Notes: generated by a model not told the origin, from the letters alone. Positions 2,078 to 43,585 are shown, numbered from the stretch's first letter. The stretch: 64,000 bases of DNA from Euglena gracilis (GCA_039621445.1 CP154954.1:36441703-36505702); one strand, 5' to 3'. Numbers and translations: made by a program.

Positions 2078-2469
2078 GAATATTATATAACGTATATGGC
2101 CACCTGCCCCCCCCCAAAAAACAATGGCCATGCGGCCAAAAATCAAAATAAATGACCATCGATGGAGGGCCATGGTGGAAAAAAATCCCATGTATTAAGG
2201 GTTTCAGCAAGACAGTCAACTGGCACAGGCAAGGAACATACACCCGTCCAAGCCTCAAGATGCCTTTAGTAATTGGGATATGACGAGGGATCCCAGGATC
2301 AGTATTTGCTTGATCTACTAAATTCAGCTCAGCAAAGTCATCCTCTGACATGGCTGGGAAGAATTTTTGGTTGGCAGGCTTTTGTGGAAGAAACTCGCGA
2401 TATTTTTGTTTTGATTCTTAATTCTAGATTAAATTTTAACACCAACCGTACGCATTCAGAGCCCTGACT

Positions 2470-3140
2470 CAGTGGTCCTTGGGATGCCAAGTTTGCCCCA
2501 CAACGACAGATGGCTCCTTGCCGGAATGTCCCCGTTGCCACCAACAAATGGATGTTGGAGGAAACCACCTTGTCTGCTGCCCCAAAAACAACACTTTGCG
2601 GCGACATGGTGCCCTCCAGACGTTCGTTTTGGACCTGGCGAGAAGGGCCGGTTTCATGGCTCGACGAGAAGAGGTGGCTGACAACCGGACAAGACCCGGA
2701 GATGTCTTCATCACGAGGTTCGACGCGGACGGACCTGCAGCAGTGGATGTCACGGTCCGCCACCCGTTGCAACCAGCAAACCCGGTCTCCTCAAAGGACG
2801 CCTTAGCACGGTGGCACGAACTACAAGAGGGAGACAAAGAACGCAAGTATGCAGCCACTTGCGAACGGCTGGGATGGACGTTCATCCCGTTTGTGGTTGA
2901 CTGCTTCGGAGGGATGGGGGAGCGAGCGGCAGGATTCATATCGAAGTGCCTCCGCACTGTGTTGGCGCAGACCGATGTTCCTCAACGACGATCGTCAGAG
3001 GCCACGGTATGGCAAGCGCTGAGTCTAACGTTGGCCAGGGAATTGGCTCGCCAGCTGGCTTGGGGGGCAGTGGCGGAGCCATCAGGCGACGTTGATCTCA
3101 CTACCCACACCCCATATGCCACGGAGTAAAAAAAAAAAAA
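2470..3140 (+). pseudogene. 5'-truncated RLE-clade non-LTR retrotransposon (CCHC knuckle plus restriction-like endonuclease)
   Basis: ORF 2479-3129 has CPRC..H..CC, RH and RPGDVFITRFD..AVD, is clearly homologous to 8716-9370, and is followed by an A-run after the stop. Confidence 0.85.
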
Positions 3141-3922: not shown

Positions 3923-5804
3923 ATGTCGGACAAGTGAAAGCCCCACCAGGGGTATAGTTTGAAGCTCCGAGTTCGACAAACTGTGGCATTTCATGAGAAG
4001 GCGTTGGAGCCGAGACAGCAGAGAGGAGGATGAAGGAGAAGGTTTCCTTGAAGCAGAAGAGTATGAGAACTATCTGAAACGCAGGTGGGGTTCTTCGTAT
4101 GTGATGTGAATTTTTTGGCGTTTTTTGAATTTTTTTGTAAACAAAATGGTTGCTTTTATGAGCATGAATAATCATTTTTTCTCATTGTCAGCATGAAAAA
4201 ATTCCCCGGTGGAGTTGGAGATTCTCCAAGTCCTCTCCATCAGAAAGTGCACATCCGGGAGCTCCGAAAGGATTTTATATGCGAATATATTTTATATGCC
4301 CAGAACGACCTCGCCAGCTGCGTTGGGAACAGAAGGAAGCTGACAGGAAAAGAAGAGCTGAGTACTGGGGAAGACAGACCAGAAGTCGCAGCAGAAGCCC
4401 TGACAGAAAGAGATTCAATGTTTAACGTGGTGGAAACCCTCCAGACAGGAGGAGTGCAGCTGAGTTCCCTCCAGACTGGAGGTGGCCTGACCAAGAGAGA
4501 CAGGTCAGAGATTCTTCTGCACAGAGAAGACCCCTGCAGCAGCAGCAGGAGTATGAGTAGCAGTTGGGAGACTACCCAGCACAGAGAAGACCCCTGCAGC
4601 AGCAGGAGTATGGGCAGGAGAGAGAGTACCCTGCACAGAGAAGGTCAGACACTGTACATCTGCCATCTGGGGTTATTCCATGGACTACATTTTATCAACT
4701 GCCTTAGCCTTCTCCCAGTTTGTACTCCTCTGCTGCAGCATCTGCCACAGGTCATCAAGTACCCCATCCCCAGTCTGTGATGTATACACCAGCAGCTGCA
4801 GCCACAGCAGGCCTTTCAGGACAAGCTGCAGTTTTGCCTGGCCAGGGCCAGACAATGTGTGGCCAGAACCAGATGTATATGACTCCCCAGCCTGTTTACT
4901 ATGTGGACCCCTCTGGGGCAATGTCTGCAGACCTACCCTGGTGGAAGTACCAGCTGTTGATGGGCCATTCGGTGGGGCACAATGCCATCCCCCCAGGAAC
5001 TGTCAACACCTCAGCAGCAGTGTCCTCTGCCCAGCCAGCCTCTGGAGGGCCTGGGGTCAGCACCCCCCCCCTCCTTACCAAGAAGGAGGAGGAGCCAAAG
5101 CCATTCAGGGAGAGAAAAGGAGGACTGACAGCTCTGGAGCCTCAGCCTCCACATCAACAGCCTCCAGGGCCAAATCCTCTTCTGTTTCCTCATCAGACAG
5201 TGATGACAAGCAGTAGTTGGACTTGCTGAAAGAAAGGCGACGTGAAAGGAAAGAACAGTAGCAAAAAATGAAGAAGCGGACCACACACAGGGAGAAGAAA
5301 CATTCCCATTGTGTGGCTCAGTGCGTGCTGAAGACCCCCCCAAGATTTTCTGCAGCAAAAGTCCAGGAGAGGGGAAGATATACCCCCCCAACTGCAGTTG
5401 GAGAAAAACTCGGCCATGAGTTGATTACCCCCCTTGCCCTGGAATTCGGGCCTGAGCAAGGACAAAGGGAATCCCAAACCCCAGTGATGGAAAAAGGTAC
5501 CCCCACAAGGGAGAAAAAACCGGCGGTGCAAGAAAAAAGACGGCCAGCACCAGGAGGCCCATACAAAATTTTCTCTGTCTTTGACACAGAGATTTGGAAA
5601 GTGGAAGGCCAGTGGTTAAACCCAACGGGCGTCATGTTTGACGAAAAATGCCGGGAGCCGAGGTCTGGTCCGCCCAATTCCCCGGAAAATGCTCCACTGC
5701 AGGAAACCTCTTTAAGCAGCTGGAAGAAAAAATTCCTGCATCAGCGGCAGGAGCGACGGCAGCAGGGGGCACGCTGGTCCACGAGCGGGCGGCACGTAAA
5801 TTGA
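3923..5804 (+). pseudogene. Broken low-complexity (Q/P/S/R-rich) N-terminal coding region with a GT-AG intron at 4085-4191
   Basis: Overlapping ORF pieces 4193-4780, 4720-5229 and 5268-5804. Removing the T-rich 4085-4191 segment joins ...YENYLKR in frame to SMKKFPGG. Confidence 0.5.
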
Positions 5805-7090
5805 CCAAAGTCGTGGACCAATGGCAACAGATGGGACGAAATCGTGACATCCCGGCCAAGGGCCCTTGGGGGCTGCTTTTTTCTGGTGACATCAACCCCC
5901 AGCCTGGACCAACGGCGGGCCCGTGTGGTGAATGTGATCTCCTGCATGTCTTGGTGGAACAACAAGTACAAGACATGTTCAAAATACGGGCGGATGAGGA
6001 GCCTGCAAAAGGACCAGACGGGACGTCACCTCTCTTTCAGGAAAGAGAAGCCTTCTGGGTACAGTGCACCCTGTGTGGGTGGTCAAGGCAAACAATAAAT
6101 TCTGGGTGGTGCTTGTCCCACGTACAGCATTGTGCAGAATTACAAGACATTCTTTGCGGCCCGGGAAACACATTGCTGCAGGTGCCAGAAGAACACCTAG
6201 CCACAGGCAGGGAAGGTGTGGCTTTCAGCGGTGATGTCCCCCTGAACCCGGGCCCCAGGAAGGAATCTGAAGCTCACAAAAGAAAAGCACGTGGCCATGG
6301 GAAAACTGGGCGGGAAGAAGCTGTTCTGACCCATGGTGATGTGGAGCAGAATCCGGGGCCTATGGAAGGCAGCATGGAAGTGGACTTGGGGGGGTGTCAC
6401 ACCTTACAAGGACCGTGTCCCAAAGGTTTGCGCCCTGCATGGGATGACATTGCACATGACCGAAGGACCACGTTGACATTGATCCCCAGAGGAGCGCTGG
6501 GGGAAGTGGCACGAACCCTGACCCTCTTGTTCAGACGATTACGACAAGAAGGCTCTTGGGAGGCCTTTCACTCTTTGTGGTGTTTTCCAAAGGCAGTCCT
6601 GGCAAGCACTGGACAGGGTGGACCATCCCACTGGGCCAGAATTGGGCGGCTGCTGTGTACCAGAGCCAAGGCGTACCTGGAAAAAGACGTCCATGAATGC
6701 TGGGAGTCGTCCAGGCCGTCGGAAGCGAATTTCGGATCCAGCGTCAAAACCCGATCAGCAAAAAGTAAAGAGGAGGAAATCCAACAAGAAGCCTTTCTCA
6801 ACAGAATGCAGAAACTGGTGGAAAGAGGGGCAACGGCAAAGGCGCGTCAGGCAATGTTGTCAGACGGAGTCCAAGATGCAAATGATGCAAAAATTCGTGA
6901 GCGTTTACGTCTGCTTCACCCATCAGAAGATCCGCCCGGGAAATGGCCCCCCGATGGAAGAGTGCGCCTGCCAGTCCCTGAGGGACAAGAAGGAGACGCC
7001 CACATGAAAAAGGCCGTGAGACGGGCCATCCTGTCCTTCAAAAACGAAACAGCAGGAGGACCGAGCGGGCTGACCATCTCAAAACATTGA
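5648..7090 (+). pseudogene. Retrotransposon polyprotein segment with three 2A-like motifs and a Cys/His zinc-finger-like region
   Basis: GDINPQPGP, GDVPLNPGP and GDVEQNPGP; CTLC...H..HC; ends in the TAGGPSGL motif that precedes RT in this clade. Confidence 0.8.
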
Positions 7091-8181
7091 TCTCCGCACA
7101 GGCTGCGGGCTGTGGTGATGATTTACTGGAAGAAATCTCCGCCTTTGTCTTCTCGGCAATCCAACAAGGACTGCCTTTGGAAATGGGGTCCATCTTGGCA
7201 GGAGCACGACTGACGCCGTTGAGAAAGAAGAAACCACAAACAGATGCTGCCGGTAATGTGATGCTGCATACGGACAACAATTTGCAACACGAAGGAACCA
7301 GGCCAATTGCGGCAGGAGAAGTTTTAAGACGGTTGCTTGCCAAAGTTCTGTTAAAAGAAGCCACTGTACGAAACACTCTGATTGACGGGCTGCCTGGGCA
7401 AGTCGGTGTAGGCCATTCTGACGCTTGTGCTCTCACCAGTATTGCACTGCAACAAATTGTTCAAGGACTGCAAAAGGCAGGGAAAACAGAATGGGCTGTT
7501 CTGCAGCTGGATTTTGCAAACGCCTTCAATCAATTGAAACGGGAACCCATGTTACATCAAGTGCGACAGCAGGTACCACACATGACAGCTTGGACTGAAT
7601 CATGCCATGGTTCACATTCCCCTTTGTATTGTGGAAACACAAGCCTGAGGTCCAAAACGGGAGTTCAACAAGGGGACCCTTATGGCCCGGCTCTTTTCTG
7701 CATTGCGGTGCAACCTTTGGTCAACAAAATTGCAGAAATGGTGCCATGGCAGTGCTGGTACCTGGACGACTGCCATCTAATTGGATCCATGGAACAGCTG
7801 GATCGTGTGGTGCGCATGCTTTTGGCAGACGGTCCTGCGATTGGGGTCAGTCTGAACATGGACAAATGTCGGCTGTGGGGCCCAGCCGTCAATGATGCCT
7901 TTCGCAGATTGCCACAGGGAAGCAGTGTGTTGCAACGAATACCGGCAACATCCTTTGTGGAGGGATCTGGAATCAAAGCCCTGAGGATACCTGTGACGTA
8001 CCCGGGAGATGACACGTTTGTGCGATCCATTTGGCAGGACAGATTGAAAGCTTGTGAAAAATTGTGCTACTTGCTGCAGTTCATTCCTTCCGGCCACATT
8101 CGTTTCCACCTGTTGCGCCAGTGCATTGCCAGCTGCAAAGTAAATGATCTTCTACGAGGAACACCGCTTGAACTCTTCTGA
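7087..8181 (+). pseudogene. Non-LTR reverse transcriptase domain
   Basis: RPIAAGEVLRRL, LDFANAFN, GVQQGDPYGP, YLDD (7759), GVSLNMDKC. Confidence 0.95.
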
Positions 8182-9370
8182 AGATATGGTACGGCTCTTC
8201 TCTGCCCTGGTCCGTGACAGTTTGAGCAATATTGCACGAAGACAGCTCACTGAAGCTCGATGGGAGCAATCCACCATCCCCATTCGACTGGGAGGCCTGG
8301 GCCTGCACGATGCAATAAAGACCAGGCCAGTGGCCAGATGGGCTGCTATTTTGGATTTCTGCAAAAGAGCAGAACACAGTGTCTCGTTCCCGAAAGAACT
8401 TGAGCTATTACCATCAGACTTCGTTCTGACAGGTCGCACAGTCGAACAAATCACGGGGGAGAGTCATTTGACAACTTTGATACTACAGGACTCCAATCGG
8501 ATTCCTCACCTGGGGAAAGTGGAAAGTTCCCAGAAGTTCTGGAACGACAAGCTCTCTGAGAAACGAGGAGCTGACTTGGTAACGCATTCCACCGGGGCTG
8601 ACAAGGTGCGTATTTTGAGCCAACAGAAACCTCATGCATTGGCGTGGGTGGCAGCAAACCCTTGTGCAGCAAAAAAGACATTGATGCCCCCAGGTGAATT
8701 CCGAGCAGTTCTACAATGGACTCTGGGATGACTGTTGTAGCTCCACACGAAGGTTTGGAGGCAAAGTGTCCACGATGTGAGACAGTGATGGATGACCAAG
8801 GGAATCACCTGGTTTGTTGCACAAAAAAACAATTTGGCACGGCGACATGCAGGAATTCAAAACTTCATCCTGCAGCTGGCACAGGCGGCAGGCTATACTG
8901 CTCGGCGTGAAGAGGGCACTGGAGATGGAAGACGACCTGGGGATGTTTTCATCACTAGGTTCGATGCAAACGGCCCGGCTGCAATAGATGTCTCAGTGCG
9001 GCATCCACTGGCGCCGTCCCACCCAGTGACTGATCAAAGTTGGGAACGCTGGCATGAAAGACAGGAGAAAGAAAAAGTGACAAAGTACAAAGATGTATGC
9101 AGCAGGCTGGGATGGTCACTTGTGCCCCTGGTCCTGGATTATTTTGGTGGCATTGGTGATGAAGGCAGAATCTTTTTGGGGACCTGCATCCGAGCCATCC
9201 TGGGGCAGAAGGAGCCCTGGGAAAGAAGATCCTGCGAAGCAGAGTGCTGGCAAGGACAAAGCACTGTGTTGGCCCGAGAAGTGGGTCGACAACTGTCGTG
9301 GGCTCAATGCCTGGGATCTGAAGATATGCAAAGTCCTGTTCTGGCGCATCAACCTTATAATCTGGACTAA
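8144..9370 (+). pseudogene. Thumb/linker, CCHC knuckle and RLE endonuclease (frameshifted)
   Basis: PIRLGGLGL; CPRC..GNHLVCC; RRHAGI; RPGDVFITRFD..AIDVSV; KVTKY. Confidence 0.9.
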
Positions 9371-12300
9371 AGCACAACCTGCAGGAGGACACAAAGAATG
9401 TTTCCCGCAGGCTGCTGAAAATCAAAGGCTACTGCTGAGACCGTCCCATCACAATGATGAACAGCAGTATAGTATGTAAGCAACATACCACAATTTGGGA
9501 CAGCAGCCAGAACCGACAAAGATCGGAAATGCATATGACGCACAAAAAACCGGTCTGAGAATACTTCCTCAGCTCCTCCAGTCCCCCCATCGCCGGCCCA
9601 TCGCCCTTGCTCTATGTACTTTGCACTTTGCGGTCCACTGGCCACCCAGGACCTCTTCCAGCCATGACCAACAACATCGGGAAAACAAGGCTTGGGACAC
9701 AAAGAGCTCTGTCACAACAAACAGCTTGCACTTGCATTGCACACGATTCTCATCGTATCCCAGAAACGATGAGTCAAAAAAGCCTGGTCTGAAAACACTT
9801 CATCTTCACGCAACAAGACAAAACAGGATTTGGCCCACCATGCTGGCCCATCCTGGCACCATGTAATCTGAGGCACCACCAATCACCGGCGTTAGTTATG
9901 ACCACAAAGATCGAAAATATGGCACATGAGACACAAAAAAGATCGACAACGGCCCTCTTACCCTGTGACACGGCTTTGTACATTACGCATATATATTGAA
10001 CCCGTAACTCCACGTGGTGGCATTGGAGATGAAGACAGAATCTTTTTGGGGACCTGCATCCGAGCCATCCTGGGGCAGAAGGAGCCCTGGGAAAGAAGAT
10101 CCTGCGAAGCAGAGTGCTGGCAAGGACTAAGCATTGTGTTGGCCCGAGAAGTGGGTCGACAAATGTCGTGGGCTCAATGCCTGGGATCTGAAGATATGCA
10201 AAGTCCTGTTCTGGCGCATCAACCTTATAATCTGGACTAAAGCACAACCTGCAGGAGGACACAAAGAATGTTTCCCGCAGGCTGCTGAAAATCAAAGGCT
10301 ACTGCTGAGACCGTCCCATCACAATGATGAACAGCAGTATAGTATGTAAGCAACATACCACAATTTGGGACAGCAGCCAGAACCGACAAAGATCGGAAAT
10401 CCAGCATATGACGCACAAAAAACCGGTCTGAGAATACTTCCTCAGCTCCTCCAGTCCCCCCATCGCCGGCCCATCACCCTTGCTCTATGTACTTTGCACT
10501 TTGCGGTCCACTGGCCACCCAGGACCTCTTCCAGCCATGACCAACAACATTGGGAAAACAAGGCTTGGGACACAAAGAGATCTGTCACAACAAACAGCTT
10601 GCATTTGCATTGCACACGATTCTCATCGTATCCCAGAAACGATGAGTCACAAAAGCCTGGTCTGAAAACACTTCATCTTCACGCAAGAAGACAAAACAGG
10701 ATTTGGAGCACCATGCTGGCCCATCCTGGCACCATGAAATTTGAGGCACCACCAATCACCCGCGTTAGTTATGACCACAAAGATCGGAAATATGGCACAT
10801 GAGACACAAAAAAGATCGACAACGGCCCTCTTACCCTGTGACACGGCTTTGTACATTACGCATATATATTGAACCCGTAACTCCACGTGGTGGCATTGGA
10901 GATGAAGGCAGAATCTTTTTGGGGACCTGCATCCGAGCCATCCTGGGGCAGAAGGAGCCCTGGGAAAGAAGATCCTGCGAAGCAGAGTAGGACTAAGCAT
11001 TGTGTTTGAATGTCCGAGGTCCCCTTACAACGGACCTGACTTCTGGAGCCCCTTCCTTTACTTGACATCCCTTTCACTGAAATCTCTTTCCCAAAATCCC
11101 ACTTCCAGCAGCAATGACCAAACTTGAAATAAACTTGCGCCGCAGACAAAATCAAACAAATACAATCTCAGGAAAGTAATCCCAGACAACAGAGTGAACA
11201 GTGTATGTTGACAGCCACCTACAGACAGCACCATCATTTTTTCTGTGAATTAGGATCTGCCTGTTTGAATTAGGCTTCACCCTGTGATTTCATGGTGACC
11301 ATAAAAATGGACCTGGACCACTCCCACCCCCCTGCTCAAGAGATTGCCCTCGGCAATCTGACCTGACTCCAATTTGGGCCAGGTGCATCGAAATTTTTGG
11401 GGGAGCCAGGCAAAAAAGTGGTCCATTTGAAATTGCAATGGTACTGTCCTGGGTGATTGCCTTCACACCTGCCACCGACACACTACACAGCACACAGGGG
11501 TGACACGATCTGAGTGACTATGTTACAGCCAATGAATGATTAGCAGCCAAATTGCAGCACACTTCTGCGGCATCAGGCCACATCGGATAAATTCTTTCGC
11601 AGCCGATCCACAGGTGTACACACAGTACCGCGGCGTCAGGCCACAGTCAAAGACAAATACCCAGCAGCCGACCACAATCAAAGTTGCAGCAAATTGTAAT
11701 TACCAATCACAATCACTTTGCAATGTCCAATCTGGTCCCCAATTTTGTCCATCAATCTTCAAACCTTCAAATCTTTTTTGGTGGTCGAGCCATCTCCGCT
11801 GTAGCCGTCTGGCCCTTGTCCGCCTTTTGCAAAATGTTTGGCAAGCCACGGATTCCAGTCTCAGAGAATCTGTCTGGCAGGCAACTGAACGACATCTCAC
11901 CAAATCTGGCTGTACATCTCGATGGCGTCCCCTGTTCGAACTGGACTGGGACACTGTCCTGATACACTGTTCATGAATGTCCGAGGTCCCCTTACCACGG
12001 ACCTGACTTCTGGAGCCCCTTCCTTTACTTGACATCCCTTTCACTGAAATCTCTTTCCCAAAATCCCACTTCCAGCAGCAATGACCAAACTTGAAATAAA
12101 CTTGCGCCGCAGACAAAATCAAACAAATCGAATCTCAGGAAAGTAATCCCAGACAACAGAGTGAACAGTGTACGTTGACAGCTACCTACAGACAGCGCCA
12201 TCATTTTTTCTGTGAATCACGATCTGCCTGTTTGAATTAGGCTTCAGCCTGTGATTACATGGTGACCATAAAAATGCACCTGGACCACTCACATGTTGGC

Positions 12301-13028
12301 CCGAGAAGTGTGTCGACAACTGTCGTGGGCTCAATGCCTGGGATCTGAAGATATGCAAAGTCCTGTTCTGGCGCATCAACCTTATAATCTGGACTAAAGC
12401 ACAACCTGCAGGAGGACACAAAGAATGTTTCCCGCAGGCTGCTGAAAATCAAAGGCTACTGCTGAGACCGTCCCATCACAATGATGAACAGCAGTATAGT
12501 ATGTAAGCAACATACCACAATTTGGGACAGCAGCCAGAACCGACAAAGATCGGAAATCCAGCATATGACGCACAAAAAACCGGTCTGAGAATACTTCCTC
12601 AGCTCCTCCAGTCCCCCCATCGCCGGCCCATCACCCTTGCTCTATGTACTTTGCACTTTGCGGTCCACTGGCCACCCAGGACCTCTTCCAGCCATGACCA
12701 ACAACATCGGGAAAACAAGGCTTGGGACACAAAGAGCTCTGTCACAACAAACAGCTTGCATTTGCATTGCACAGGATTCTCATCGTATCCCAGAAACGAT
12801 GAGTCACAAAAGCCTGGTCTGAAAACACTTCATCTTCACGCAAGAAGACAAAACAGGATTTGGCCCACCATGCTGGCTCATCCTGGCACCATGTAATTTG
12901 AGGCACCACCAATCACCCGCGTTAGTTATGACCGACAAAGATCGAAAATATGACACATGAGGCACAAAAAAGATCGACAACGGCCCTCTTACCCGGGAAG
13001 CCGGTGACACCGCTATGTACATTACGCA

Positions 13029-13036: not shown

Positions 13037-13350
<314 letters not shown>

Positions 13351-14289: not shown

Positions 14290-16690
14290 GCCCCCGACGA
14301 ACTGGCGAGCCACGTTCCTCCACATTTTGGCCTGCAACAGTGGCCACCCAGCCAGACAGCACATCCACTTTTTGGTCTGCAACAGTGGCCCCGCAGCCAG
14401 CCAGTTCTGCCAGATGCTGCTGGCCTTCAACCTTCCCTCAGCAATATGAATTTGACAACCCCCAGGTTACCTCTCCGCTGACCGGAAAAGACCACCCAAC
14501 GTCGGCCAAACAAAGAAAAGTGCTTGTGCCTTACACTCCTGCGAAATACAGGACACAGCCTACACTGGCAGCATCGGGGGGAGCGGGCCGAGGTCGGTCT
14601 TTACTCAGCTGCGGGGACATTGAAAGTAACCCCGGACCTCCTACAGACCCACCATTTGTTCCGTGTGAGGATATTGACATGGCGCCAGCATCACAAATCT
14701 CCATCCCTCCTGCTGCACCACCGCCCGCAGAGCCCCCGTCGGTGGCGGGTGAGGACGTTGACATGGCGCCAGCATCACAAATTTCCATCCCGAGGGCCGG
14801 CTTCGATCGGTACCATCTTCTGGACGCGCGGCTTCGAGTCCCGATGAGCTAAACTCCGATCCGGGGGTGCACGGGACTTGAACCAGCCATGGCATACGGC
14901 GCTGCCAGGCGGGGTAAGGAATGGCTGCCATATGGCGGGAAGTTCCGATGGCGCCGAGGTAGAAATCAGCAACCAGAGGCTCGACCCTGGCGTGCCTGAT
15001 GGGTAAGGGCCGGCGAACCATAGATTCAACGGCGTTTGCCCACCTGACGTGTCACGATTAAACCATTGCGGCTTCGGCCGAGCAGTGACACCAAAGACAA
15101 GCAACCCCTATCAAGCACGCCATCGCCAAGCATCAGGAGCTGAGGCAAGGGATGGAGGACTCCGAGTGCCTCGAACCCTAGGGCTAATGCCCCCTGGCGG
15201 AGTGTAGCTCCACATCCGAGAAAGTGAAACGCTTGGGTCCAGCAAGTTTTTAAAAAAAAGTCGGCCCACCACCGTTGGAGGAGATTTGAGAGCAAAAAAG
15301 GGCATTTGTCATGGATTGCTACGGGGGCATGCGACAGGAAGCGCGCTCCTTGATGGCCACCCTCCTCAAGGCCCTTTTGGGGCAGCGGGAAGGGTGACAT
15401 CGGCCGCGGAAGCAGGCATTTGGCAAGGCCTTCCTTCACACTAATGAGAGAAATCAGCAGATAGCTCGTTCGGAGCTTGTATTCTTCCAAATATGAGATC
15501 ACCCTGTCTTCCGCCCACTCACCATATTCTGTCTGAAGGCCTTTGAGCTCTCAACAAAAATCACCAACATTGACCTCTCACCTGCCGTTTACACCCCAAG
15601 TTCAGATTACAAAATGAGCAAAGAAGGCACAACTCAGTAACCCCTAGTAACCCCTTGAGCAGAGCCACACGCCGAGCCAAAGACATATCAACGGATCACA
15701 AAGACGCGGAGAGAAGCAAAACACACAACAGCCAAAAACCCGACACAAACACGCCATCCCGTTTCAAAAGAGGTACAAACGCCCCCTCCCCGCCCAATAT
15801 ATATTGAAGGTGACCTTTGCTCATCTTCCTCTAACCACTAACCTCCGCACCCTGAACAAGCATCACTCAGCACTCTTTTGTACATTACACCCAGAGTATA
15901 AACAACCCGCGACGTGTGGCGGCACAGGGAGTAACAAGGGGGTTCCTCTTGTGGCGAGGGCCAAAAGAGACGTTTCCCTGGCCCGGGGCACGATTTGGGT
16001 GAAGCTGTGCTACCTACCGTGTGCTTCTGCAAAAAAGGCGAGGGCGAAAAGAGACGTTTACGTGGGCCCGGGGGACGGTTTGGGTGAAGCTGTGCTACCC
16101 ACCGTGTGTTCGTTATCACTAAAAAAAAGAGCCCATGTTCTCACGGCATTGGTGGAGGAAGGCGCACTGTCCAAGGCCGCTAAGCTGTTGGTGTCAAATG
16201 GGCTTGTCAACTCGCAGGAACCAGGTGTGGAAGCCGTACTGAGGGACCTCCATCCCCAGCACAGCCACACTTGGTCCCGGCAGGGGATTGGCCCACCTCG
16301 ATTGCCTGCCGCCTGGTGGACGAGGGCATGGACGAAGAGGAGAGCAACGAGCAGTGGTCCAAGCGGGCGGACCATCTGGGCTGCGTCCAATCCACCTCAG
16401 TGAAAGTTGCCGAAAGCTGGGGGGGGCCTGGTCCAAGCCCTCGGCAAGCTTGCTGCGACGGCCCTGACCACATCATTCCCGGAGAGCGTGCGAGAAGTGC
16501 TATGCGCCTCCACGCTCATCCCGCTCCGCAAGAAGGATGGGGGGTGTGCGGCTCATTGCTGTCGGGGACACCCTCCGGCGAGTGGCGGGCAAGTGCCTTC
16601 CCCATTCTGAAGCGGTGACGATAGAGTTGGCAGCCCCACAACCGCGGCAGTGCGGGGTGGGAGTGCGCAACGCCGCCGAGATGGTGGGCA
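14290..16690 (+). pseudogene. 5' part of a second decayed CRE-like non-LTR retrotransposon, with a T2A-like peptide
   Basis: GRGRSLLSCGDIESNPGP (core 14616-14639); LVEEGALSKAAKLLVSNG is homologous to LVERGATAKARQAMLSDG of element 1; ASTLIPLRKKDGG and IAVGDTLRR. The 5' boundary is approximate and 15060-15940 may be unrelated DNA. Confidence 0.7.
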
Positions 16691-17809
16691 TGACGACCTT
16701 TTGAGGTCGACCGCCGGGCGGCGGAGTTTTTCCCTTTTAGAAGGCCTTTTGAGGGCGGTTTTGCTCTAATTTTAAGGCTTTCTAAAGATTTTTATTAAAA
16801 TTCCCTCTCCTAGGGCGCCCATGGTTTGGTTGTGCAAGGAGAGAGATTGAGTGATGCTAGGTAATCCCAAGGGGTGATTTTGGGTTTATTTAGCACAATT
16901 TAAGCTTTTTATGCATTTTTCCTTTGGTTTTAAGGGAAAATGTTGGATTTGGTGAGAGCGCTTGCAAGCGCTTGGATCAGATTTTTCTGAGATTGGCGCC
17001 TGAGTTCCTGGAGTTTTTGCAGGGGTTTGCAAAGCTCAATAATGATGGAATTCAGCATGATTTATCAAAATCAAGGGGGGAAACCTTGATTTTGACATGG
17101 GTTGGTTGATTTTGATGCAATGGGCAAGGATTTGGGATTTGAGAGCGCTTAGGAATCAGCGCACTCAATCCTAAATTTAACTGCCCATCAAGGGCATCAA
17201 AATCACATTCCTCTTCACAGGGTTTTCCTCTATTTTCCTCTTCACTTGTTTCACCATTGCATTTGTTGTGTCAATTACAACCAATTACATTCAATCATTG
17301 AACTTGGATTTACAATTGGAATTGCAAATGGAAGGACAACAAATCAATCAAGAAAGCTCAATTGAAGAAGGTGAGGTTTGTCTTCCCCCCACCTCATCTG
17401 TGGGAAAAGGGGCAGGGGGGTGGGTCTCTTCAACTCAGGCAACCACAGGCCAAATTTCACCCCAAAACCCCCTTTTTGGCCCAGAAACGGTGAGAAATGA
17501 CACCCAGGGGGGGGTGTTGGCTCTCACTGGTTCAGCTGAGCAGGGAGGGGTTGAAACCCCAAAGGCACCCCCCTTGGAGATCCCAGTGACACCCCCGTCA
17601 GGGGTCGGGGAGGGTCCACTGGGAAGTTCCTCCTTGGAAATGATGGCCCAGTTTCGGCCACAGGGGGGGGGGCCAGAATGGGAAAAAATTTCCGACACAA
17701 GTCGGCTCGAGGAGCCAAAAAACGATCCTACGCCGGAAACTGGCCCGGGGCGGGGGTTTCCGCTTCACCCCAGTGCTGCCGGGGGACATGGCAGCACGGG
17801 GGTGAAACA
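16691..17809 (+). repeat. 5' LTR (1119 bp)
   Basis: TG...CA ends; direct repeat of 28791-29906; strong hairpin at 17764-17806. Confidence 0.95.
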
Positions 17810-20800
17810 TGGTAAGCAGAGGTTGATCCTTCAGCCTTCAGTCGGAAATTTTGGGTTGGAAATCCCTGCTCAGAATGTTTTCTTTGATGATCAGCCAATG
17901 GCCCAATCTCAGATGGCAAATCTGACGATTGGAGTTTCGGGGAACAGGGATTTGGGACCCGAAACCAGTTTGGCTGGACTCAGAACCCCCACAAATATGG
18001 GACAGATGTTGGAATTTCAGGGTGGGGATGGCCAGGTTGTCATTTCCAACCAACCGTGTTTTCCAGAGCCTTTTTCAGGGGTTTTGCCTTTGCAAAATAT
18101 GGGGTACGGTTTTGTGCTGCCTGAGTTGCAACCTCTCCCAGACTTTTCATGGGTGCAAAATTTAGGGAATCTGCCATCATTACCCGCTTTTGCATTGCCT
18201 TTGCCTCCAGCTCAACCAGTTTCTTCAACACCAGCCCAAGAGCCGGTGGCACTTTTGCAGTTTTCCCAACCATCCCAGGTAGATGGGCTGGCGAAGGAAA
18301 CGGCAAGTGCCTCGGCATGGCAGGGGGTGATAACCCCAGCCCAGTTTTCTTTGAAAAGCAAGCACAGGTCAATGTGCTGGGCTTAAACAATAATAATAAC
18401 TGGGACAGCAGCGAACGGGTCAGAGCAGAAGTCGAGCAGGCAGAGGAAAACCCGAAGGACCAGCCCAGCTCTACTTCTGCTCGACGACCCCGAACACCGG
18501 CTTCATCACCAGGCAGTGATGAAGTTCAGCAAAAACGGCTGCACCGTGAGGTTGATCACGGTCAGCCAGCAGCTGCTGCAGCCCCCCAGCCTCCTCATAT
18601 TTTCATCGAGGGGGGTGAGGAGGAGGTCCAACCCCCAGCCTATGAAAGTTCTGAAGCCACCCCCAGGGGGGGTTCACAAAATCAGGAATTTGAAGACCCC
18701 TGGGGGCAGTTTTTACAAAGTAACAGAGACCTCCAGTGGACTGTGCAGCACCTGACTTTTCGGGTTTTGGCTTTGGAAAAAGCCAACGAAGAGTGGGTTC
18801 TGCAGCAGCAGCAGCAACAACCCCCCGCAGTCGACATCCACCTGGTGGAGCACATGGCTGCACGAATCGAAGAAACGGCCAGGGCTGACTGCCTCCATAT
18901 TTTTGAACTTTTTGAGAAAAAATGTGAGGCCCAGGTGCAAATTTCTGTGCAAAAAATTGACGCACAGGCACTTGAACTTTTTGTCGGGCAGGAAAAAAGT
19001 TTTGAGGAAAAACTGGCCCAGCAGTTTTCTTCGAGCCGTGATCAGTTTTTGGCCCTGAGGCAGGAATTTTTACGAATTTTGGACAGCCTGCCACAGGAAA
19101 TTTTTAAGCAGGTGCAAAATCAGGTGGCTGCCTTACCAATTAAGGATCTCGTGCTTGAAAATTTTCAGCGGTTTGCTGAGAATTTTAAAGCCGCCCAGCC
19201 AGCTCAGGGGGGGGAGGCAGAAACTCTCCAGGAGCTGGCCGTTGTCGCTGCCAAAATCGTTGAAGTTCAGGCTGACCTGGTATCGCTGCGTAGTACGGTA
19301 CAGGGCCAGGCTCAGCAGCTCCAGCAGTTCGCTGATTATGTTCGCCAGCTGGGTGAGCAAAATTCAGCAATGAATACGGCCCTCCATAGTTTTGGTGGTG
19401 GTATTCAGAAACTGCACCAGAATATTTCAGATGAAGTAGGGAAACGACACTCAGAAATGCAAAAACTGTTGACGGATTGTCAGCAGAATTTTCAGAGTGT
19501 TCATCAGCAGATTTTTTCCCAGGAGAAAAAATTTGGTGGGCTGGTGGAGGAATTAAGGCAGGGACTTGCAAAAGTTGGGGGGAACACTTTCGAGTTGCAG
19601 AAAGTGTTGCAGGATTTACAAAAAAATGGACCCGTACACCCAACTGCAGAACCGAGAGGAGTTTTGCAAAAAAATTCTGACATGTGGTGGCTGCGGCAGG
19701 GCAGCCAGCAACCCCTGCACCCAGTTGGGCTGCCACAGCCTGGGCAGCAGCTGGCCCAGCAGCCTGTCATCCAGCTGGCCCAGCAGCCTGGCCAGCCAGC
19801 AGGCCAGCCGCAGCCTGCTCACGGGCTGCCAAGGGGGCTGGGCCTGCCGTCAGCTGGACAGCAGCAGCCCCTGGGGCAGCCTTCCAGCTCACTGGCCAGC
19901 ACGGTGCCCAGTGCTGACCCAGCTTTTTCAGATCAGATTATTTCTCAAAATAAATCTGCAGGTTCAAACATTTCCCCTCCCTTAGTTATTGAGGGGGGAT
20001 TTGTTTTGGAGGACACGCAAGACACGGCAGTGGTTTCTTCTGTGTCATTGTGTGTCCCTCCACACGTTTCTGCAGCCCCTGCTTTCTCGATTAGGCCTAT
20101 CGGGACAGGGGGGGCTGCAGCCAACCCAGGACACGGGTTGGGTTTTCCTTTTATCGGTGACCCAGTAGCTTTTGAAATTTTGCAGGGAGGTGCTAAGCCC
20201 TATTTTGATGAATCGGGCAGCATTTCCTGGCAAGATTTTGAAGTAGATTGGAATCTTTACTGGGACAGGTTGACATCAGGGAAACCGTATTCTGATTTGC
20301 AAAAGCTGCAGGTTTTTGAGGCATGTTTAGGACCCAGATTAAGGGAGGAAATCAGGCTCTATCGGTTGAATGGAGCTAAATTAAGTTACCCCACCATATT
20401 AGCCCAATTCCAGAACCGTTATGCCTCGAGTAAGGGGCTGACGGCTCGGAAAATATGGCAGGAGGTAACTATGGTAAACGAAGGAAAAATTACCCGGGCT
20501 GATCTGCAAGAATTTTGGATTAAATTTTGCAGTGCCTGGCACCATGTAAAGGATGCCACAGCCGGGGAGGCTCGGAGATTATTTTTGGAAAGAATTCCTC
20601 CTTTTTTAAGCAAGTTTTGCATAGAAGAGGAGGATAACCGAGCCCGTAAACAACCCATTGTCAGGCTCACAGGGATACCAAATCCCACGGTGGATGGGAT
20701 TAAAAGGAGTGTGAGCCAGATCACTGGGGGGATTGATCCACGGAAAGTGGTTATCAAAAACCCTGGTGCCATTTGCCTTATTTATTTCAGTTCTTCGGAG

Positions 20801-21520
20801 GAGGCACTGAAATTAACAGCCGTAAATGGAAGGAAATTGCAGGGAATGGAAAATTTCCTCAACGCCGAATTGGTGGAACAACTAATGACCGTTGAGGAAA
20901 TGTTTGCTTTTGCCGAGGGCAGGTTGGCTCTTCGGGAGAAGCAGGATTTGGCTTTGAATCAGCACCATTTTCCCAGATTATTCAGCAAATCAACAACAAA
21001 AGGCTCAGGGAAAATACAGGTGTTGGAAAAAGGCCAAACCCCCCCGGTGTCCCCAACCTCTGTGTCAACACCAGCGGCTGGGGGGCAGGGTCACACCTCA
21101 AAATCTGCCCCACAGCCAGCTCCAAAGGGAGATAAGGGGCCAGCCCAGCCAGCCCAGCGGGGCAGGTCCCCTTCTTCGTCTTCGCGGCCAGGTGCAGCTT
21201 CATGGTCGCGAACCCAAAGTCCAGCACCCCCAGCCCGGCAAGGCAAGGGGGGGCAGACCTGGACCCCGCAGGCATCGGGTAGGGGCAGGTCCCCATATCC
21301 ATGCTTCAACTGTGGGGAGTGCGGGCATTATTTTTATGAGTGTGAAAAACCGCTGAGTGAGGCCCTTGCTAAATCTAAGGATTTTTGGCAAAATAATGGA
21401 AAAGGCAAGGGGCAGCCCAAGGGTAAAGGGCAGCCAGCCACTCAGCGAAATTCCTCAGGCAAGGGGGGTGCATGGTCAAAGGGGGGTGGGCCCACCTCTT
21501 CTCCCCCTGGGGCCCAATAG
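17328..21520 (+). CDS. gag: Very long Gag-like protein (frameshift near 18350): P/G-rich N-terminus, coiled coil, capsid-like region, RRM-like insert, CCHC knuckle
   Basis: ORFs 17268-18386 and 18149-21520; CFNCGECGHYFYEC (21302-21343); TAG stop at 21518-21520. Confidence 0.75.
17810..17825 (+). promoter_or_regulatory. Primer-binding site, tRNA-iMet-like
   Basis: TGGTAAGCAGAGG directly follows the LTR and resembles the iMet-type PBS TGGTAGCAGAGG with one extra A. Confidence 0.7.
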
Positions 21521-21633
21521 GGGGGCCAGGGGCAGTTTGAGAAGGGGGGGCTGCCCATGGCCGTGTCTCTCCCCCCTGTGAGGAAAACGGTGTAAATATT
21601 TCTGATTCAAAAAACTGGGTTGTACAGGATTTT

Positions 21634-22848
21634 ATGGCTGATTCAGGGTGTGGTGAAAAACATTCTTTGGATCAGCCCCCCAGATTTTTGAATCGGACTC
21701 GTTACTCCTGGAGGGAAGGAAAATGTTCAAGGGTTCCCATTTTGCATTCAAACCTGCCACAGCCCAACCCCCCACCATCAGCCCAGCGACCTCAGGCATT
21801 AGATTTATTCGCTGGCACAGGTTCGGTGGGGAGGCGGTTGGCAGAAAGGGGGTATGAAGTTTTGTCAATTGAAAATGCTCCCTGGACGGACTTCCACCCC
21901 CACACAGACATTTTGACCTGGGACTACAGGCGATACCCGGTTGGATTTTTTGAGGTTATTGCCGCTAGTCCCCCCTGTAATATTTATTCCACGGCTTATA
22001 ACCCCAGGCCAAGGGATTTCTCCCAGGCGGATGCCCTGGTGGAGAAAGCCCTGGAAATTATAAATTATTTTCAGCCAAAGTTGTGGTGGTTGGAGAACCC
22101 CCGCACTGGTCTTTTGCGAAATAGGGAGGTGGTGAAAAACCTGCCCTATATCGACATTGATTATTGTCAGTTTTCGGATTGGGGTTATAAAAAGCCCACA
22201 CGCTTCTGGTGCTGCCCAGCCATTTCACAACTACGGTCGGTGTTGTGTGATGGCGAATCGTGTCCTAACCTGGTGATGGGGGACAATGGGCAGTTCCGGC
22301 ACCGTGAATTGTTGGGGGGCAGAAAAATGAAGTTTACCCCCCGACAAAAAGGAAGAATACCCCCCCTGGTGATTGATTATCTCCTAAGTGCTGGGGATTT
22401 TCTGGGGGGGCAGCCCAAAGAAATTTCCCAAAATTCCCAGGATTTTGAGGAATGGGAAATTCCAGACCGTTGTTGTCATTTGGCCAACACCTTGAAGGTT
22501 AATCAGGTGTTGCCCATTGAAAACGAGCTGCAACTTTTGATGCTATCACAGACGTATCTCCCTAACGGAGATACCAAGCAGCTCAAAGTTTTGGTGGACA
22601 CGGGAGCCCAGGTGAACCTGGTCAAAAGGTCCATCGTTCCAAAACATTTGGCCAGGTCACCACGAATGCCTATTCGGCTGGTGGCTGCCAATGGCCAATG
22701 TGTTTTGGGGGGCGACCAGTGTATTAAGTTGGAGTTGGGTTTTCAACGCAGGGGTACGGGGCAGGGGGGCACCCAGGCCTTGTACCTCGAAGGGGAATTC
22801 TACCTCGCGGATATTGAGGTAGATGCTATATATCATTTCCATGGTTAG
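21634..22848 (+). CDS. C5-cytosine DNA methyltransferase fused in frame to a retroviral-type aspartic protease
   Basis: Motif I LDLFAGTG, motif IV SPPC, motif VI LENP, motif VIII-like YKKPTRFW; then VLVDTGAQVNLV (22597). Confidence 0.9.
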   Translation: MADSGCGEKHSLDQPPRFLNRTRYSWREGKCSRVPILHSNLPQPNPPPSAQRPQALDLFAGTGSVGRRLAERGYEVLSIENAPWTDFHPHTDILTWDYRRYPVGFFEVIAASPPCNIYSTAYNPRPRDFSQADALVEKALEIINYFQPKLWWLENPRTGLLRNREVVKNLPYIDIDYCQFSDWGYKKPTRFWCCPAISQLRSVLCDGESCPNLVMGDNGQFRHRELLGGRKMKFTPRQKGRIPPLVIDYLLSAGDFLGGQPKEISQNSQDFEEWEIPDRCCHLANTLKVNQVLPIENELQLLMLSQTYLPNGDTKQLKVLVDTGAQVNLVKRSIVPKHLARSPRMPIRLVAANGQCVLGGDQCIKLELGFQRRGTGQGGTQALYLEGEFYLADIEVDAIYHFHG

Positions 22849-28790: not shown

Positions 28791-29906
28791 TGACGACCTT
28801 TTGAGGTCGACCGCCGGGCGGCGGAGTTTTTCCCTTTTAGAAGGCCTTTTGAGGGCGGTTTTGCTCTAATTTTAAGGCTTTCTAAAGATTTTTATTAAAA
28901 TTCCCTCTCCTAGGGCGCCCATGGTTTGGTTGTGCAAGGAGAGAGATTGAGTGATGCTAGGTAATCCCAAGGGGTGATTTTGGGTTTATTTAGCACAATT
29001 TAAGCTTTTTATGCATTTTTCCTTTGGTTTTAAGGGAAAATGTTGGATTTGGTGAGAGCGCTTGCAAGCGCTTGGATCAGATTTTTCTGAGATTGGCGCC
29101 TGAGTTCCTGGAGTTTTTGCAGGGGTTTGCAAAGCTCAATAATGATGGAATTCAGCATGATTTATCAAAATCAAGGGGGGAAACCTTGATTTTGACATGG
29201 GTTGGTTGATTTTGATGCAATGGGCAAGGATTTGGGATTTGAGAGCGCTTAGGAATCAGCGCACTCAATCCTAAATTTAACTGCCCATCAAGGGCATCAA
29301 AATCACATTCCTCTTCACAGGGTTTTCCTCTATTTTCCTCTTCACTTGTTTCACCATTGCATTTGTTGTGTCAATTACAACCAATTACATTCAATCATTG
29401 AACTTGGATTTACAATTGGAATTGCAAATGGAAGGACAACAAATCAATCAAGAAAGCTCAATTGAAGAAGGTGAGGTTTGTCTTCCCCCCACCTCATCTG
29501 TGGGAAAAGGGGCAGGGGGGTGGGTCTCTTCAACTCAGGCAACCACAGGCCAAATTTCACCCCAAAACCCCCTTTTTGGCCCAGAAACGGTGAGAAATGA
29601 CACCCAGGGGGGGGTGTTGGCTCTCACTGGTTCAGCTGAGCAGGGAGGGGTTGAAACCCCAAAGGCACCCCCCTTGGAGATCCCAGTGACACCCCCGTCA
29701 GGGGTCGGGGAGGGTCCACTGGGAAGTTCCTCCTTGGAAATGATGGCCCAGTTTCGGCCACAGGGGGGGCCAGAATGGGAAAAAATTTCCGACACAAGTC
29801 GGCTCGAGGAGCCAGAAAACGATCCTACGCCGGAAACTGGCCCGGGGCGGGGGTTTCCGCTTCACCCCAGTGCTGCCGGGGGACATGGCAGCACGGGGGT
29901 GAAACA
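28791..29906 (+). repeat. 3' LTR (1116 bp)
   Basis: Direct repeat of 16691-17809. Confidence 0.95.
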
Positions 29907-32279
29907 TCCGGCGAGTGGCGGGCAAGTGCCTTCCCCATTCTGAAGCGGTGACGATAGAGTTGGCAGCCCCACAACCGCGGCAGTGCGGGGTGGGAGTGCG
30001 CAACGCCGCCGAGATGGTGGGCATGCGCCTGCAACGCTGCGTCTAGCCAAGCCACCTCCAAGGGGACAACGACTACGTGGTGTTGCAGGTGGATATGCGC
30101 AATGCCTTCAACTCCACCAGCAGGGATGCAATGCTCCGGGGGTGCTTGGCCAAGGTACCCACGGCGTACAACTGGCTGCGCTTTTGCTACAGTGGATTAA
30201 GTCCGTTGTTTTGCCAAGGGCGCTTCCTATGTACAAGCCAGATCGGAATGCATCAATGCGACGCATTGGGCTTTGCACTGGGCTTGGACTACGCCCTTGA
30301 CTAGTGATTTGCCCGGGACTTGGCATGGGAGCCTTGGTACCTCGACGACGGCCACATCGTGGGGAAACCAGCGTTGGCGTTGGCCCGCCTCCATGGCCTC
30401 GGCACGGTCTGGGAGCGAGTAGGCCTCCACCCCAATTTGGCCAAGTGCAAATTTTGGGGACCTGGGATGCAAACGGTCAATCAAGCCGGGCCACATTACC
30501 CAGAAGGTTTGGCAAAAGGCCACTTGGGACGACAAGTGCCCATGATTCCCTTTGGAGGACCGAAGGGCATCACGACCCTGGCCGTCCCAATTGATGCCCC
30601 GCGGGAGCATCGCACAGCACAAGAGGACACGCCAAGAGCACCGCAATGCCAAGCTGTATAGGAAGAGACCGTGGACATGGCGACCTTGCTCTTGGAACGG
30701 CTCAGGGGATACCCAGAGGGGCAAGTGCGGCACGCACTTTTGCGGTAGTGTCTTGACGGATGTCTGGTGGTCCAGCTCCTCCGATCAACAGAGAGAGAAA
30801 ACACACGGGACTCCCCGCTCATTCTCAGGGCACGGCTGCAGGAAGCCATACAAGATCCCCTCGGACTGGGAATCACCGAAAGTTCATGGGATCAGGTCTC
30901 CCTGCCCCTCCGCCAAGGAGGACTCGGAATCTCGGACCCCGAAGTGTTGCAACCCGCGGCACGTATGGCGGCCTTGCTGAACCTGGGGATGCACGGCAGC
31001 CAAGCGGTGGGGGTGCCAGCCTCGGCGTTGGCAACCCCATCCCCGGACATGCAAGACATGGTACAACGGTTGCGGCAACAGCTTGGCCCCAACATGGATC
31101 CCGTGGCCAGCTGGCTCGCGGGCACCACCCCACTCTCCTCCGCAGCACCAGAACACGCCACCCAACGGTGGTGGGCTTAGAAAGTGGCGTAAAAGCAGAG
31201 CCAGCGAGTGGACGCGGTCGGCTCTGCCAGGGACCGGGTGAGACGGGCTTGCCAAAAGGGACCGGTGGCAACAGGATGGCTGCAGACTTTGCCCAGCAAG
31301 GCACAGCACACAGCTTTCTCGGACACCCAATACTAGCTGCTACTGCGGTGGTGGCTTGGCCTGCCCATCCTCCCTTCAGGGGTCACGTTGCCGGGGTGGT
31401 CCCGTGTCCCGGGGTCACTTCGTCTGCTGCGAGCAGAAAGGAAATACCCAACGGCACAATGCATTCCGAGATGCTTTTGCGGCGATGTGTGCCTGGTACA
31501 ATATTGCGGCGGAGAAGGAGGTAGAGTGTTTGGCGAACAAAAGACCAGCCGATGTTCTCCTCATCAACATGTCACGGGAGCAACAAGTGGCAGTCGATTT
31601 CGTCTACAGCCACCCCGTGGGGCTGAGAGAGCACCCACTGGTGGTGGACAATGCCCGCAGGCATTGCAACCAGGTGGAAACCAGGAAAGTGCAAAACGGA
31701 TGGGCCCCTTCAGCAAAGGGGTGGAGCTTCTCACCCTTCGGCCTGAGCACATGGGGAGGCCTGGGTACCTCTGCCAAGGCGGTGCTGTCTGAGGTCACCA
31801 AAATGGCCACCGCAGACATGCGGGGATGGCAAAGACAAGGGCCCTGCAAGAAATGCAGGTAGCATTATCGGAGACACTCATGCGCCACGTGGCGCGGAAG
31901 CTATCCGCCAGGGACCGCGTGGAGGAGGCCCTGCACCCATGGTAAGTCCCCAACTCCCACCGCAGACCACACCAAAAGCGAGCAAGACCAAGACCAAGAG
32001 GGCCACAACCCACAAAGTGCGGAGGTTCACCACGGAAACACCTCCCCCCCCCCCAAAACGCGGCCCCCCGCACAAAAAAAACCAAATAAAAGAGAAGCCG
32101 CCAAAAAAAAAGAGCCCACACGCCAGGCGAAAGGTATCCGGCCAACGAGGCGACAAAGGGGAGTGGAGCCGGCAAAAGCAAGACACACGCAAAGTGTAGC
32201 CCGCCCGACCTGGACTCCACAAGGTGAGAAGAGAGTGCACGCGCGACCCAGCAAGCCGGCTATCGCCCCTAAAAAAAAA
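29907..32279 (+). pseudogene. 3' part (RT-RLE-3'UTR) of the second CRE-like element, with many stops
   Basis: VDMRNAFNS, WYLDDG, LRQGGLGI, HFVCC..RHN, RPADVLL..VAVD; the A-run at 32271-32279 is taken as the approximate end. Confidence 0.85.
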
Positions 32280-37600: not shown

Positions 37601-38263
37601 GCAGGGACTCCTAACCCAACGCACCCAAACAATCCAAACAACACCGCCGGCGAGCAAGGCATGGCCTCACAAGGTCTTTGTGCTTCGCCCTCGGTGTCCC
37701 TTCCTCCCTGGTCGGCTTGCCTCGAGGGAGTACGAGACCCCCGCGGGTCTGACGACCTGCTGGACTGCTGCCTTACCCCCCCACCCCAGGAAAGGGATCA
37801 CCCGAATCCTAGCAGAGTTGGCCCGACATGAAGACAATCAGAGCGAAACAACATCATTGATACAGCCTTTTGCAAGCAAACGCGCAAACGCTCCCGTCGA
37901 CTAAGAACGGGAGCTGAGAGGGCCAAATGGTCAGTCAACCGACCAGGCGCGGGTACTGGTTTTTGGAAAACAAACAAAGAAGACATTGCCCGCGATCAAC
38001 GGAGAAGGTTAGAAAAACTTCCAGCCGCCCTTCTGGCGGTTGGAAAAGCTTTACAAAGCTCCGATGGGGAGGGCCGGGCTGCCCCTGGCAGGCTGGACAA
38101 GTGGCTCAGCGTGTGCAGGGGAACGGTCTCGAAGGCAGGTCCTTTCTGAAGCCAGATGGCGCCGCAACTCCTCCCTTATTAAAGGGGTGACTGGCTTTTA
38201 CAGTTGGCTGAGTGGTTTTTTTTTGGTACAGCCAATGGCGGCGCAGGAATTTTTTCCCTTTTT

Positions 38264-43584: not shown

Positions 43585-43585
<1 letters not shown>

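Follow-up and report, generated by a model that had tools for sequence, protein, structure and literature searches.

The stretch of Euglena gracilis DNA analysed here, 64,000 nt in length and termed the window (GCA_039621445.1 CP154954.1:36441703-36505702), carries at 5262-9358 a decayed, dead copy of an R2-like retrotransposon of the non-LTR type (LTR, long terminal repeat), in which three 2A-like (StopGo) motifs lie in a single stop-free frame, 5642..7090, ahead of the reverse transcriptase (RT). Comparison by tblastn with P0001, a full-length relative from the protein search described below, recovered one element over 5834-9358 in frames 2, 1 and 2 (Table 1). Its RT was also recognised by Pfam (RVT_1, E 5e-15, 7294-7878) in the open reading frame (ORF) 6982..8181; five other window ORFs tested matched no Pfam family. 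The upstream leader ORF belongs to a stop-free frame, 5262..5804, that overlaps the beginning of the motif-bearing frame; it matched no Pfam family and gave no SLBP-like match with a local hidden Markov model (HMM), whose best hit in the window (E 0.28) lay elsewhere. By Pfam scan and local HMM the window copy has no Dam or SLBP-like cassette.

Frame breaks occur near 5764, 7068 and 8168 and between 8724 and 8823, the last as an in-frame stop with a local frame disturbance in the region of the restriction-like endonuclease (RLE). An earlier interpretation of this DNA, the sequence-only reading, had described a single-ORF element; this does not hold for the window copy and is borne out in relatives with uninterrupted ORFs of 1736-2004 aa. 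Contigs of four public sequencing runs were compared with the window over 5200-9400 at a likeness of at least 80%, and the best-supported differences were considered. Three of the runs are DNA, from three organisms; the fourth (X17), with 9 contigs on this stretch, was guessed to be RNA and may be DNA. In all four runs a 1-nt indel relative to the window is seen at 5764, and it would bring the leader and motif frames into register. Since this indel would join the motif frame to 5262..5804, the protein start lies further upstream than the sequence-only reading had placed it. Further indels at 7068, 8168, 8724 and 8823 were found in the three DNA runs, and the five indel sites are the places where the window frame shifts or meets a stop.

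Table 1. Positions of the element's parts and of related features in the window
Feature	Position	Strand	Remarks
Upstream leader ORF	5262..5764	+	out of frame with the motifs in the window copy
Motif 1, LLFSGDINPQPGP	5873-5911	+	degenerate 2A: E->N, N->Q
CCHC zinc module, 115 aa	5909..6253	+	C-x2-C-x14-H-x3-C
Motif 2, VAFSGDVPLNPGP	6218-6256	+	2A with E->P
Motif 3, VLTHGDVEQNPGP	6323-6361	+	canonical 2A/StopGo core GDVEQNPGP (6335-6361)
Conserved N-terminal domain of RT protein	6359..7072	+	P0001 residues 745-964, 43% identity; begins at the putative StopGo proline
Reverse transcriptase	7066..8169	+	frame 1; P0001 residues 965-1336, 45% identity
C-terminal region, CCHC and RLE	8111..9358	+	P0001 residues 1320-1734, 38% identity
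Fourth 2A in the window, LLSCGDIESNPGP	14601-14639	+	canonical GDIESNPGP core, in a second, fragmented family member
RLE tail of another family member	2455..3117	+	P0001 residues 1513-1734, 51% identity

R2-like identity of the element

With the 482-aa frame as query, 166 proteins were found at E<=1e-3 among 1.84 billion representatives (the best 150 are listed), and most of them matched the conserved domain just past motif 3. A profile built from 14 long relatives (alignment A1) was searched against solved structures and matched the R2 proteins 9nl3_A (E 2.3e-29) and 9dou_A (E 3.8e-29); the alignment extends from RT motif 0 across the CCHC and the RLE, end to end, and includes the CCHC, RH, PD and D.V motifs. 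Residues C1535, C1538, H1548, C1552, H1561, E1582, P1591 and D1593 are nearly invariant in A1. R2 and LINE-1 ORF2p are the best solved relatives of the RT, LINE-1 ORF2p matching the profile over the RT only (about 1e-13). P0001 alone, searched by phmmer against the PDB, gave no match at E<=0.01, and R2 was reached only with the 14-sequence profile. Neither the window ORFs nor the 14 relatives scanned against Pfam matched APE/Exo_endo_phos, and the look-alikes of the RLE tail are eukaryotic protein clusters.

By this comparison with the solved R2 chains, the sole RLE references compared, the element is classed as an RLE-type, R2-like non-LTR retrotransposon, in agreement with the type guessed beforehand. 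As in R2 (9nl3, 9dou, 8gh6), the RT is followed by a CCHC and a PD-(D/E)xK RLE in a single ORF, a likeness spanning about 730 profile positions (E about 2e-29). The aligned solved chains, however, begin at RT motif 0, leaving the N-terminal DNA-binding region of R2 (before residue about 411 of 9nl3_A) unmatched, and in the window family the N-terminal zinc module is delimited by 2A motifs rather than fused.

The three 2A-like motifs and the zinc module

The 8-residue cores of the three motifs occupy 5888-5911, 6233-6256 and 6338-6361, the corresponding 13-mers beginning 15 nt before each, and coding sequence flanks all of them on both sides within the frame. As the sequence-only reading had noted, GD(V/I)ExNPGP is matched by motif 3 alone among the three (substitutions in Table 1); its break is predicted between G (6356-6358) and P (6359-6361). 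A hydrophobic or leucine stretch of the LLxxGD kind, expected 5-8 residues before the core, is present in motif 1 (GLLFSGD), in motif 3 (AVLTHGD) and in the 2A of the second element (SLLSCGD); the corresponding stretch of motif 2, GVAFSGD, is a weaker hydrophobic match. Motifs 2 and 3 are separated by 35 aa.

In 200 dinucleotide-preserving shuffles of the window, translated in six frames, GD[VI]..NPGP never occurred (mean 0.0, maximum 0), compared to three occurrences in the window, two in this element and one at 14601-14639; the relaxed pattern GD[VI]...PGP was found four times against a shuffle mean of 0.015. Bare NPGP is unremarkable, with five occurrences against a mean of 3.36 and at least five in 52 of the 200 shuffles, and this commonness in six-frame translation is what an origin by chance would have in its favour. 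Chance was rejected on the complete absence of the longer pattern from the shuffles, and insertion of an unrelated endogenous RNA-virus fragment upstream of the RT on the recurrence of the same layout inside relatives' uninterrupted ORFs, continuous with the RT-RLE, and on the lack of any viral domain in the Pfam scans; we regard either origin as hardly credible. Moreover, the four motifs in the window encode the same residues with different codons, which argues for conservation at the protein level.

Each motif has counterparts among the relatives. Motif 1 aligns with canonical 2As of P0114, P0054, P0079 and P0001, and motif 2 with the canonical 2A at the end of the P0001 zinc module; together with the zinc module they align to P0001 residues 182-329, which contain the first two 2As of that protein. 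For motif 3 and its 35-aa spacer, the match is to segments of other relatives, at their 2A ends.

The Cys/His-rich module bracketed by motifs 1 and 2, correctly recognised in the sequence-only reading, has its four Cys/His positions at C 6065-6067, C 6074-6076, H 6119-6121 and C 6131-6133. The equivalent positions C53, C56, H71 and C75 are nearly invariant among relatives (alignment A3), and a local HMM detected the CCHC module in 11 of 159 proteins; it is present in the window, P0001, P0014, P0054, P0077, P0114, P0133, P0153 and others. An AlphaFold2 model of the module (mean pLDDT 72.3, pTM 0.54) gave no Foldseek match in the PDB at E<=0.001, the best being the LINE-1 ORF1p RRM-CTD at E 1.3 (probability 0.15). 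VIA-align of the module against 48,161 chains likewise gave none with Z of at least 5 (best Z 4.1), the weak rows being zinc fingers of spliceosomal proteins and TUTs and double-stranded RNA-binding domains. Five of the six rows of whole-protein alignment A2 have a 2A, or a relic of one, directly upstream of the zinc module. A coincidence of zinc-module starts with 2A ends seen with the local HMM was set aside in favour of A2, as the HMM seeds had been cut at those ends.

The other public copies, from three organisms, retain motif 3. Within it, 6355 G>A alters a Pro codon synonymously; upstream of it, 6315 A>G turns a Glu into Gly, giving GRG as in the family consensus. Motif 1 reads GRWGLLFSGDINPLPGP in these copies, where 5901 A>T places L instead of Q and 5865 C>G places R instead of P; the resulting NPLPGP is still not NPGP. 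For motif 2, the best-supported differences listed include none common to the other copies. A protein-guided scan of JGI metagenomes for close relatives matched 93 stretches, none of which was confirmed, and an exact DNA pattern around motif 2 was found in none of these metagenomes.

The sequence-only reading held that all three motifs are active and that their sequence differences set graded skipping, tuning the amounts of leader, zinc module and RT. The substituted positions bear directly on this proposal. Deep mutational scanning of F2A and P2A reportedly found every substitution at D12, E14 and N16 to fall short of the activity threshold, with E14H in P2A as the exception (10.64898/2026.09.24.754024), and non-LTR 2As with E->S are described as inactive (PMC3708506). 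The sites homologous to motifs 1 and 2 are canonical in distant relatives, and Glu occupies the core position in 43 of 47 family contexts. Graded skipping would nevertheless find some backing in the upstream context kept in both motifs (GLLFSGD and G..AFSGD, with GR upstream in the other copies), in the sharing of the non-canonical motif 1 by copies from three organisms that lack the frame breaks of the window, and in L1Tc copies reported to carry 2A variants of varied activity (PMC3708506). With the window copy itself dead, we consider the graded scheme improbable and did not retain it. Because motifs 1 and 2 are changed at E14/N16, positions without tolerance in published work, we read them not as a tuned gradient but as relics of an ancestral three-site layout that are probably inactive. 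Only the RT-proximal motif 3 (break after 6358) retains the canonical core in the window subfamily, and leader and zinc module would remain fused as one N-terminal product.

Serial 2A sites and cassettes among the relatives

NPGP is found in 27 of 151 proteins in a conserved context, and the consensus over the 47 motif contexts is GRGxxLL(S/T)CGD(V/I)ExNPGP, with L or I at positions -12/-11 in 44 of them and L in 32. A count in 153 proteins (61,069 residues) gave 43 perfect GD[VI]ExNPGP cores and seven one-off variants, one of them with HPGP. Sites are frequently repeated: among 158 relatives, 16 have one NPGP, seven have two, seven have three and one has four. P0001 (1736 aa), P0152 (1849 aa) and P0153 (2004 aa) contain 3, 3 and 4 canonical 2A sites, respectively, internal to uninterrupted ORFs ahead of the RT, and each is a single predicted protein on one contig of 5.8-8.2 kb.

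Natural variants at the Asn before PGP were observed in P0014 (GDVQTQPGP) and P0022 (GDVEQHPGP), in addition to NPQPGP and NPLPGP in the window subfamily. They could serve to gauge tolerance at this position.

When the relatives were divided at their 2A sites and the resulting segments compared, recurring modules emerged, namely the CCHC zinc module, a Dam-like methyltransferase, an SLBP-like RNA binder and the RT-RLE protein. SLBP_RNA_bind (PF15247) was matched by P0076 (74.3 bits) and P0152 (50.6 bits) above a cut-off of 27, and the local HMM detected the SLBP-like domain also in P0046, P0001 and P0156. Dam (PF05869) exceeded its cut-off of 28.1 bits in P0022 (31.5), P0077 (31.3) and P0035 (28.7). 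The order of cassettes varies, being leader, zinc, Dam, RT in P0001 and Dam, zinc, RT in P0153 and P0077, and P0114 and P0079 have two zinc modules each. Spacers of 11-47 aa from one 2A to the next recur among relatives, as exemplified in the window by the spacer between motifs 2 and 3.

SLBP-type RNA-binding and Dam-type adenine methyltransferase domains bounded by 2As were thus seen in the R2-like proteins P0076, P0152, P0046, P0022, P0077 and P0035.

This layout suggests that in intact members one long ORF likely gives rise to several separate polypeptides via serial 2As. At a class-A 2A (GRGxxLL(S/T)CGD(V/I)ExNPG|P) the ribosome would fail to make the Gly-Pro bond and free the upstream product, and would then either restart at the proline or drop off. 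The 2As would delimit interchangeable cassettes ahead of the RT-endonuclease, namely the SLBP-like RNA binder, the CCHC zinc module and the Dam-like methyltransferase. These accessory proteins would be made free of the enzyme and, because of ribosome drop-off, in molar excess over it, whereby a single-ORF element may gain an equivalent of ORF1. The virus-like co-translational splitting proposed in the sequence-only reading is, on these grounds, most likely the design of the family, in which uninterrupted relatives hold three to four canonical 2As to which the window motifs align; the window copy is decayed and has one intact site. The locus itself is ordinary biology, a dead copy with one intact motif, and its interest lies mainly in the architecture of the family.

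The activity of motif 3 and of the family's 2As is read from sequence, a circumstance that weighs against serial splitting and equally allows the conserved GD(V/I)ExNPGP stretches to be taken as linkers, or as protease or interaction sites unrelated to ribosome skipping. This alternative is very unlikely: the likeness to class-A viral 2As covers the entire 18-residue consensus and not NPGP alone, the cores GDVESNPGP, GDIESNPGP and GDVEENPGP carry about 99% cleavage for viruses (PMC8623073), and the Pfam scans of the window ORFs and of the relatives scanned revealed no protease domain. The core GDVEQNPGP of motif 3 is itself tabulated for several picornaviruses (PMC8623073).

Several further observations count against serial splitting as the general design. 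Of the 58 relatives in which the conserved RT N-terminal domain is preceded by more than 25 residues, 39 have no NPGP in that upstream part and 19 have at least one, and 10 of the 20 relatives of at least 900 aa are likewise without NPGP; some of the NPGP-less relatives are truncated gene models, but P0016, P0070 and P0118 have 170-260 upstream residues without it. The Dam match stays under the Pfam cut-off in six relatives (P0001, P0026, P0032, P0152, P0153 and P0156). The non-canonical motif 1 is also present in copies without the frame breaks of the window and is thus subfamily-wide rather than a decay of the window copy, which leaves room for a residual role. Finally, a 2026 screen reports that most retrotransposon 2A-likes lower protein abundance rather than skip cleanly, highly active peptides being found in only 43 of 580 RT-element contigs (10.64898/2026.06.17.732966; 10.64898/2026.09.24.754024).

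The latter result raises the question of whether the motifs are mainly translational attenuators that hold the RT-endonuclease low, by drop-off or lowered abundance, rather than making discrete proteins. Lowered abundance was reported for 59% of the ORF2p-associated 2A-likes tested (10.64898/2026.06.17.732966), Odon et al. propose a down-regulated downstream product (PMC3708506), and the back-to-back 2As with 11-47 aa between them bring no cassette but would multiply attenuation. The cassettes between 2As, however, are recognisable folded domains (SLBP-like, CCHC and Dam-like), and the 2A or relic directly upstream of the zinc module in five of the six A2 rows fits the release of a discrete protein. 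Attenuation as the main function appears unlikely to us; the two roles are not mutually exclusive. Altogether, we prefer serial release of discrete proteins from intact members.

2A peptides in non-LTR elements are already known, being established in L1Tc/Ingi of trypanosomes and in metazoan Rex1, Crack, L2, CR1 and similar clades, where their proposed role is to free N-terminal functions and to lower the RT protein (PMC3708506, PMC3894237). Odon et al. made the same argument of free accessory proteins in excess for APE-type elements without ORF1 (PMC3708506). The analogy to L1Tc drawn in the sequence-only reading is apt for the mechanism and not beyond it. L1Tc and the other APE-type elements, in the parts of these papers available, have an N-terminal APE endonuclease and one 2A each in the N-terminal region of ORF2p, whereas the window family has a C-terminal R2-like RLE, no APE and two to four 2As bounding cassettes. 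REL-endo clades are described in the same available parts as single-ORF elements, with no mention of 2A (PMC3708506, PMC3894237).

Serial StopGo sites in one polyprotein, back-to-back copies and identical cores are reported for picornaviruses and other RNA viruses with multiple 2A-NPGP (PMC11512398, PMC8623073); these, in contrast, link capsid and replicase modules in an RNA genome, and the window element is a chromosomal retrotransposon. Up to three 2As have been reported in eukaryotic genes, with 2A peptides in TSAR lineages including dinoflagellates (Cell Rep 2025, PMC12338488). A StopGo paper of 2026 (PNAS, PMC12846837) makes no mention of dinoflagellates, Symbiodini, tandem sites or reverse transcriptase. 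According to the available parts of the 2026 preprints, RT-associated 2As are dominated by non-LTR-like elements, and 2A-likes occur on ORF2p-like proteins of 16 species (10.64898/2026.06.17.732966, 10.64898/2026.09.24.754024). Likeness to the window family is seen in N-terminal 2A-likes combined with accessory domains; examples include a Symbiodinium necroappetens ORF2p that carries an OTU deubiquitinase and Haematococcus Dualen/RandI elements that carry Josephin/PPR domains. In contrast to the window family, the same parts describe no R2-like RLE family in which 2As bound SLBP-like, CCHC or Dam-like cassettes, and no eukaryotic protein with four 2As. The available part of a preprint on Dam-bearing retrotransposons lists Dam in DIRS and LTR elements only and no LINEs (10.64898/2026.05.21.726589). 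A full-text search of the published literature found no account of an R2-like RLE family whose SLBP-like, CCHC or Dam-like cassettes are delimited by 2As, although supplementary tables may list such proteins, and an R2-like element with serial 2A-bounded cassettes thus appears new.

Tentatively, and with somewhat less confidence than we would need to call it probable, we propose that this R2-like lineage is organised as a modular polyprotein in the manner of picornaviruses. Its SLBP-like, CCHC, Dam-like and RT-endonuclease cassettes would be linked by as many as four StopGo connectors and could be gained, lost, duplicated and reordered without fusion to the enzyme, and an ORF1-like function would have been reached by recoding in 'ancient' single-ORF non-LTR elements, independently of APE-type lineages. 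Earlier discussion centred on 'young' APE-type elements with one site at the ORF2p N-terminus; here the putative StopGo device stands in the endonuclease-type (R2-like) branch, with several uses per ORF, each bounding a recognisable domain. The family offers a natural test of how, and in what ratios, an element with a single ORF can provide its RNA-binding and accessory proteins as separate products, and a set of natural serial 2A peptides for activity mapping, including back-to-back pairs and E14/N16 variants. The accessory repertoire of non-LTR elements gains an SLBP-like RNA binder and a Dam-like methylase. R2 proteins are reportedly under development for gene insertion (PMC13586686), and the putative natural co-expression of R2 accessory factors may be of interest to that field.

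Other features of the window

Beyond the element itself, tblastn with P0001 recovered further fragments at 2455-3117, 10016-10228, 14586-16695, 29891-31841, 45289-46809 and 50955-51191. The second, fragmented family member at 14586-16695 consists of the fourth 2A, then pieces of the RT N-terminal domain, and an RLE tail that is out of order. The fragments at 29891-31841, 45289-46809 and 50955-51191 represent two RT-RLE copies that are truncated at the 5' end and belong to more distant subfamilies (29-33% identity to P0001) and an isolated fragment of the P0001 Dam-like cassette. Downstream of the element, 9145-13000 is a tandem array of its 3' end (the last about 70 codons and the 3' untranslated region) with a period of about 870 nt and three copies 98-99% alike, followed by an (AG)n/(AT)n microsatellite at 13050-13306. 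The array may have arisen by repeated 5'-truncated insertions at one site or by unequal exchange.

The region 18125-22848 contains a gag-like ORF of 1131 aa with a CCHC knuckle and, after it, an ORF that weakly matches C-5 cytosine methylase (PF00145, E 0.001, 19 bits, under the cut-off of 22). It may be a retroelement that carries a methyltransferase, like those described from Symbiodinium (PMC5890265). The idea of a dinoflagellate origin, drawn from this pair of ORFs and that paper, is a guess, and a 21-nt dinoflagellate spliced-leader motif had no match within 3 mismatches. Furthermore, identical peptide strings recur about 15 kb apart, at 38081 and 53053 on the minus strand and at 44313 and 59213 on the plus strand, within regions at about 38070-44330 and 53040-59230, a pattern that suggests a segmental duplication of about 15 kb.

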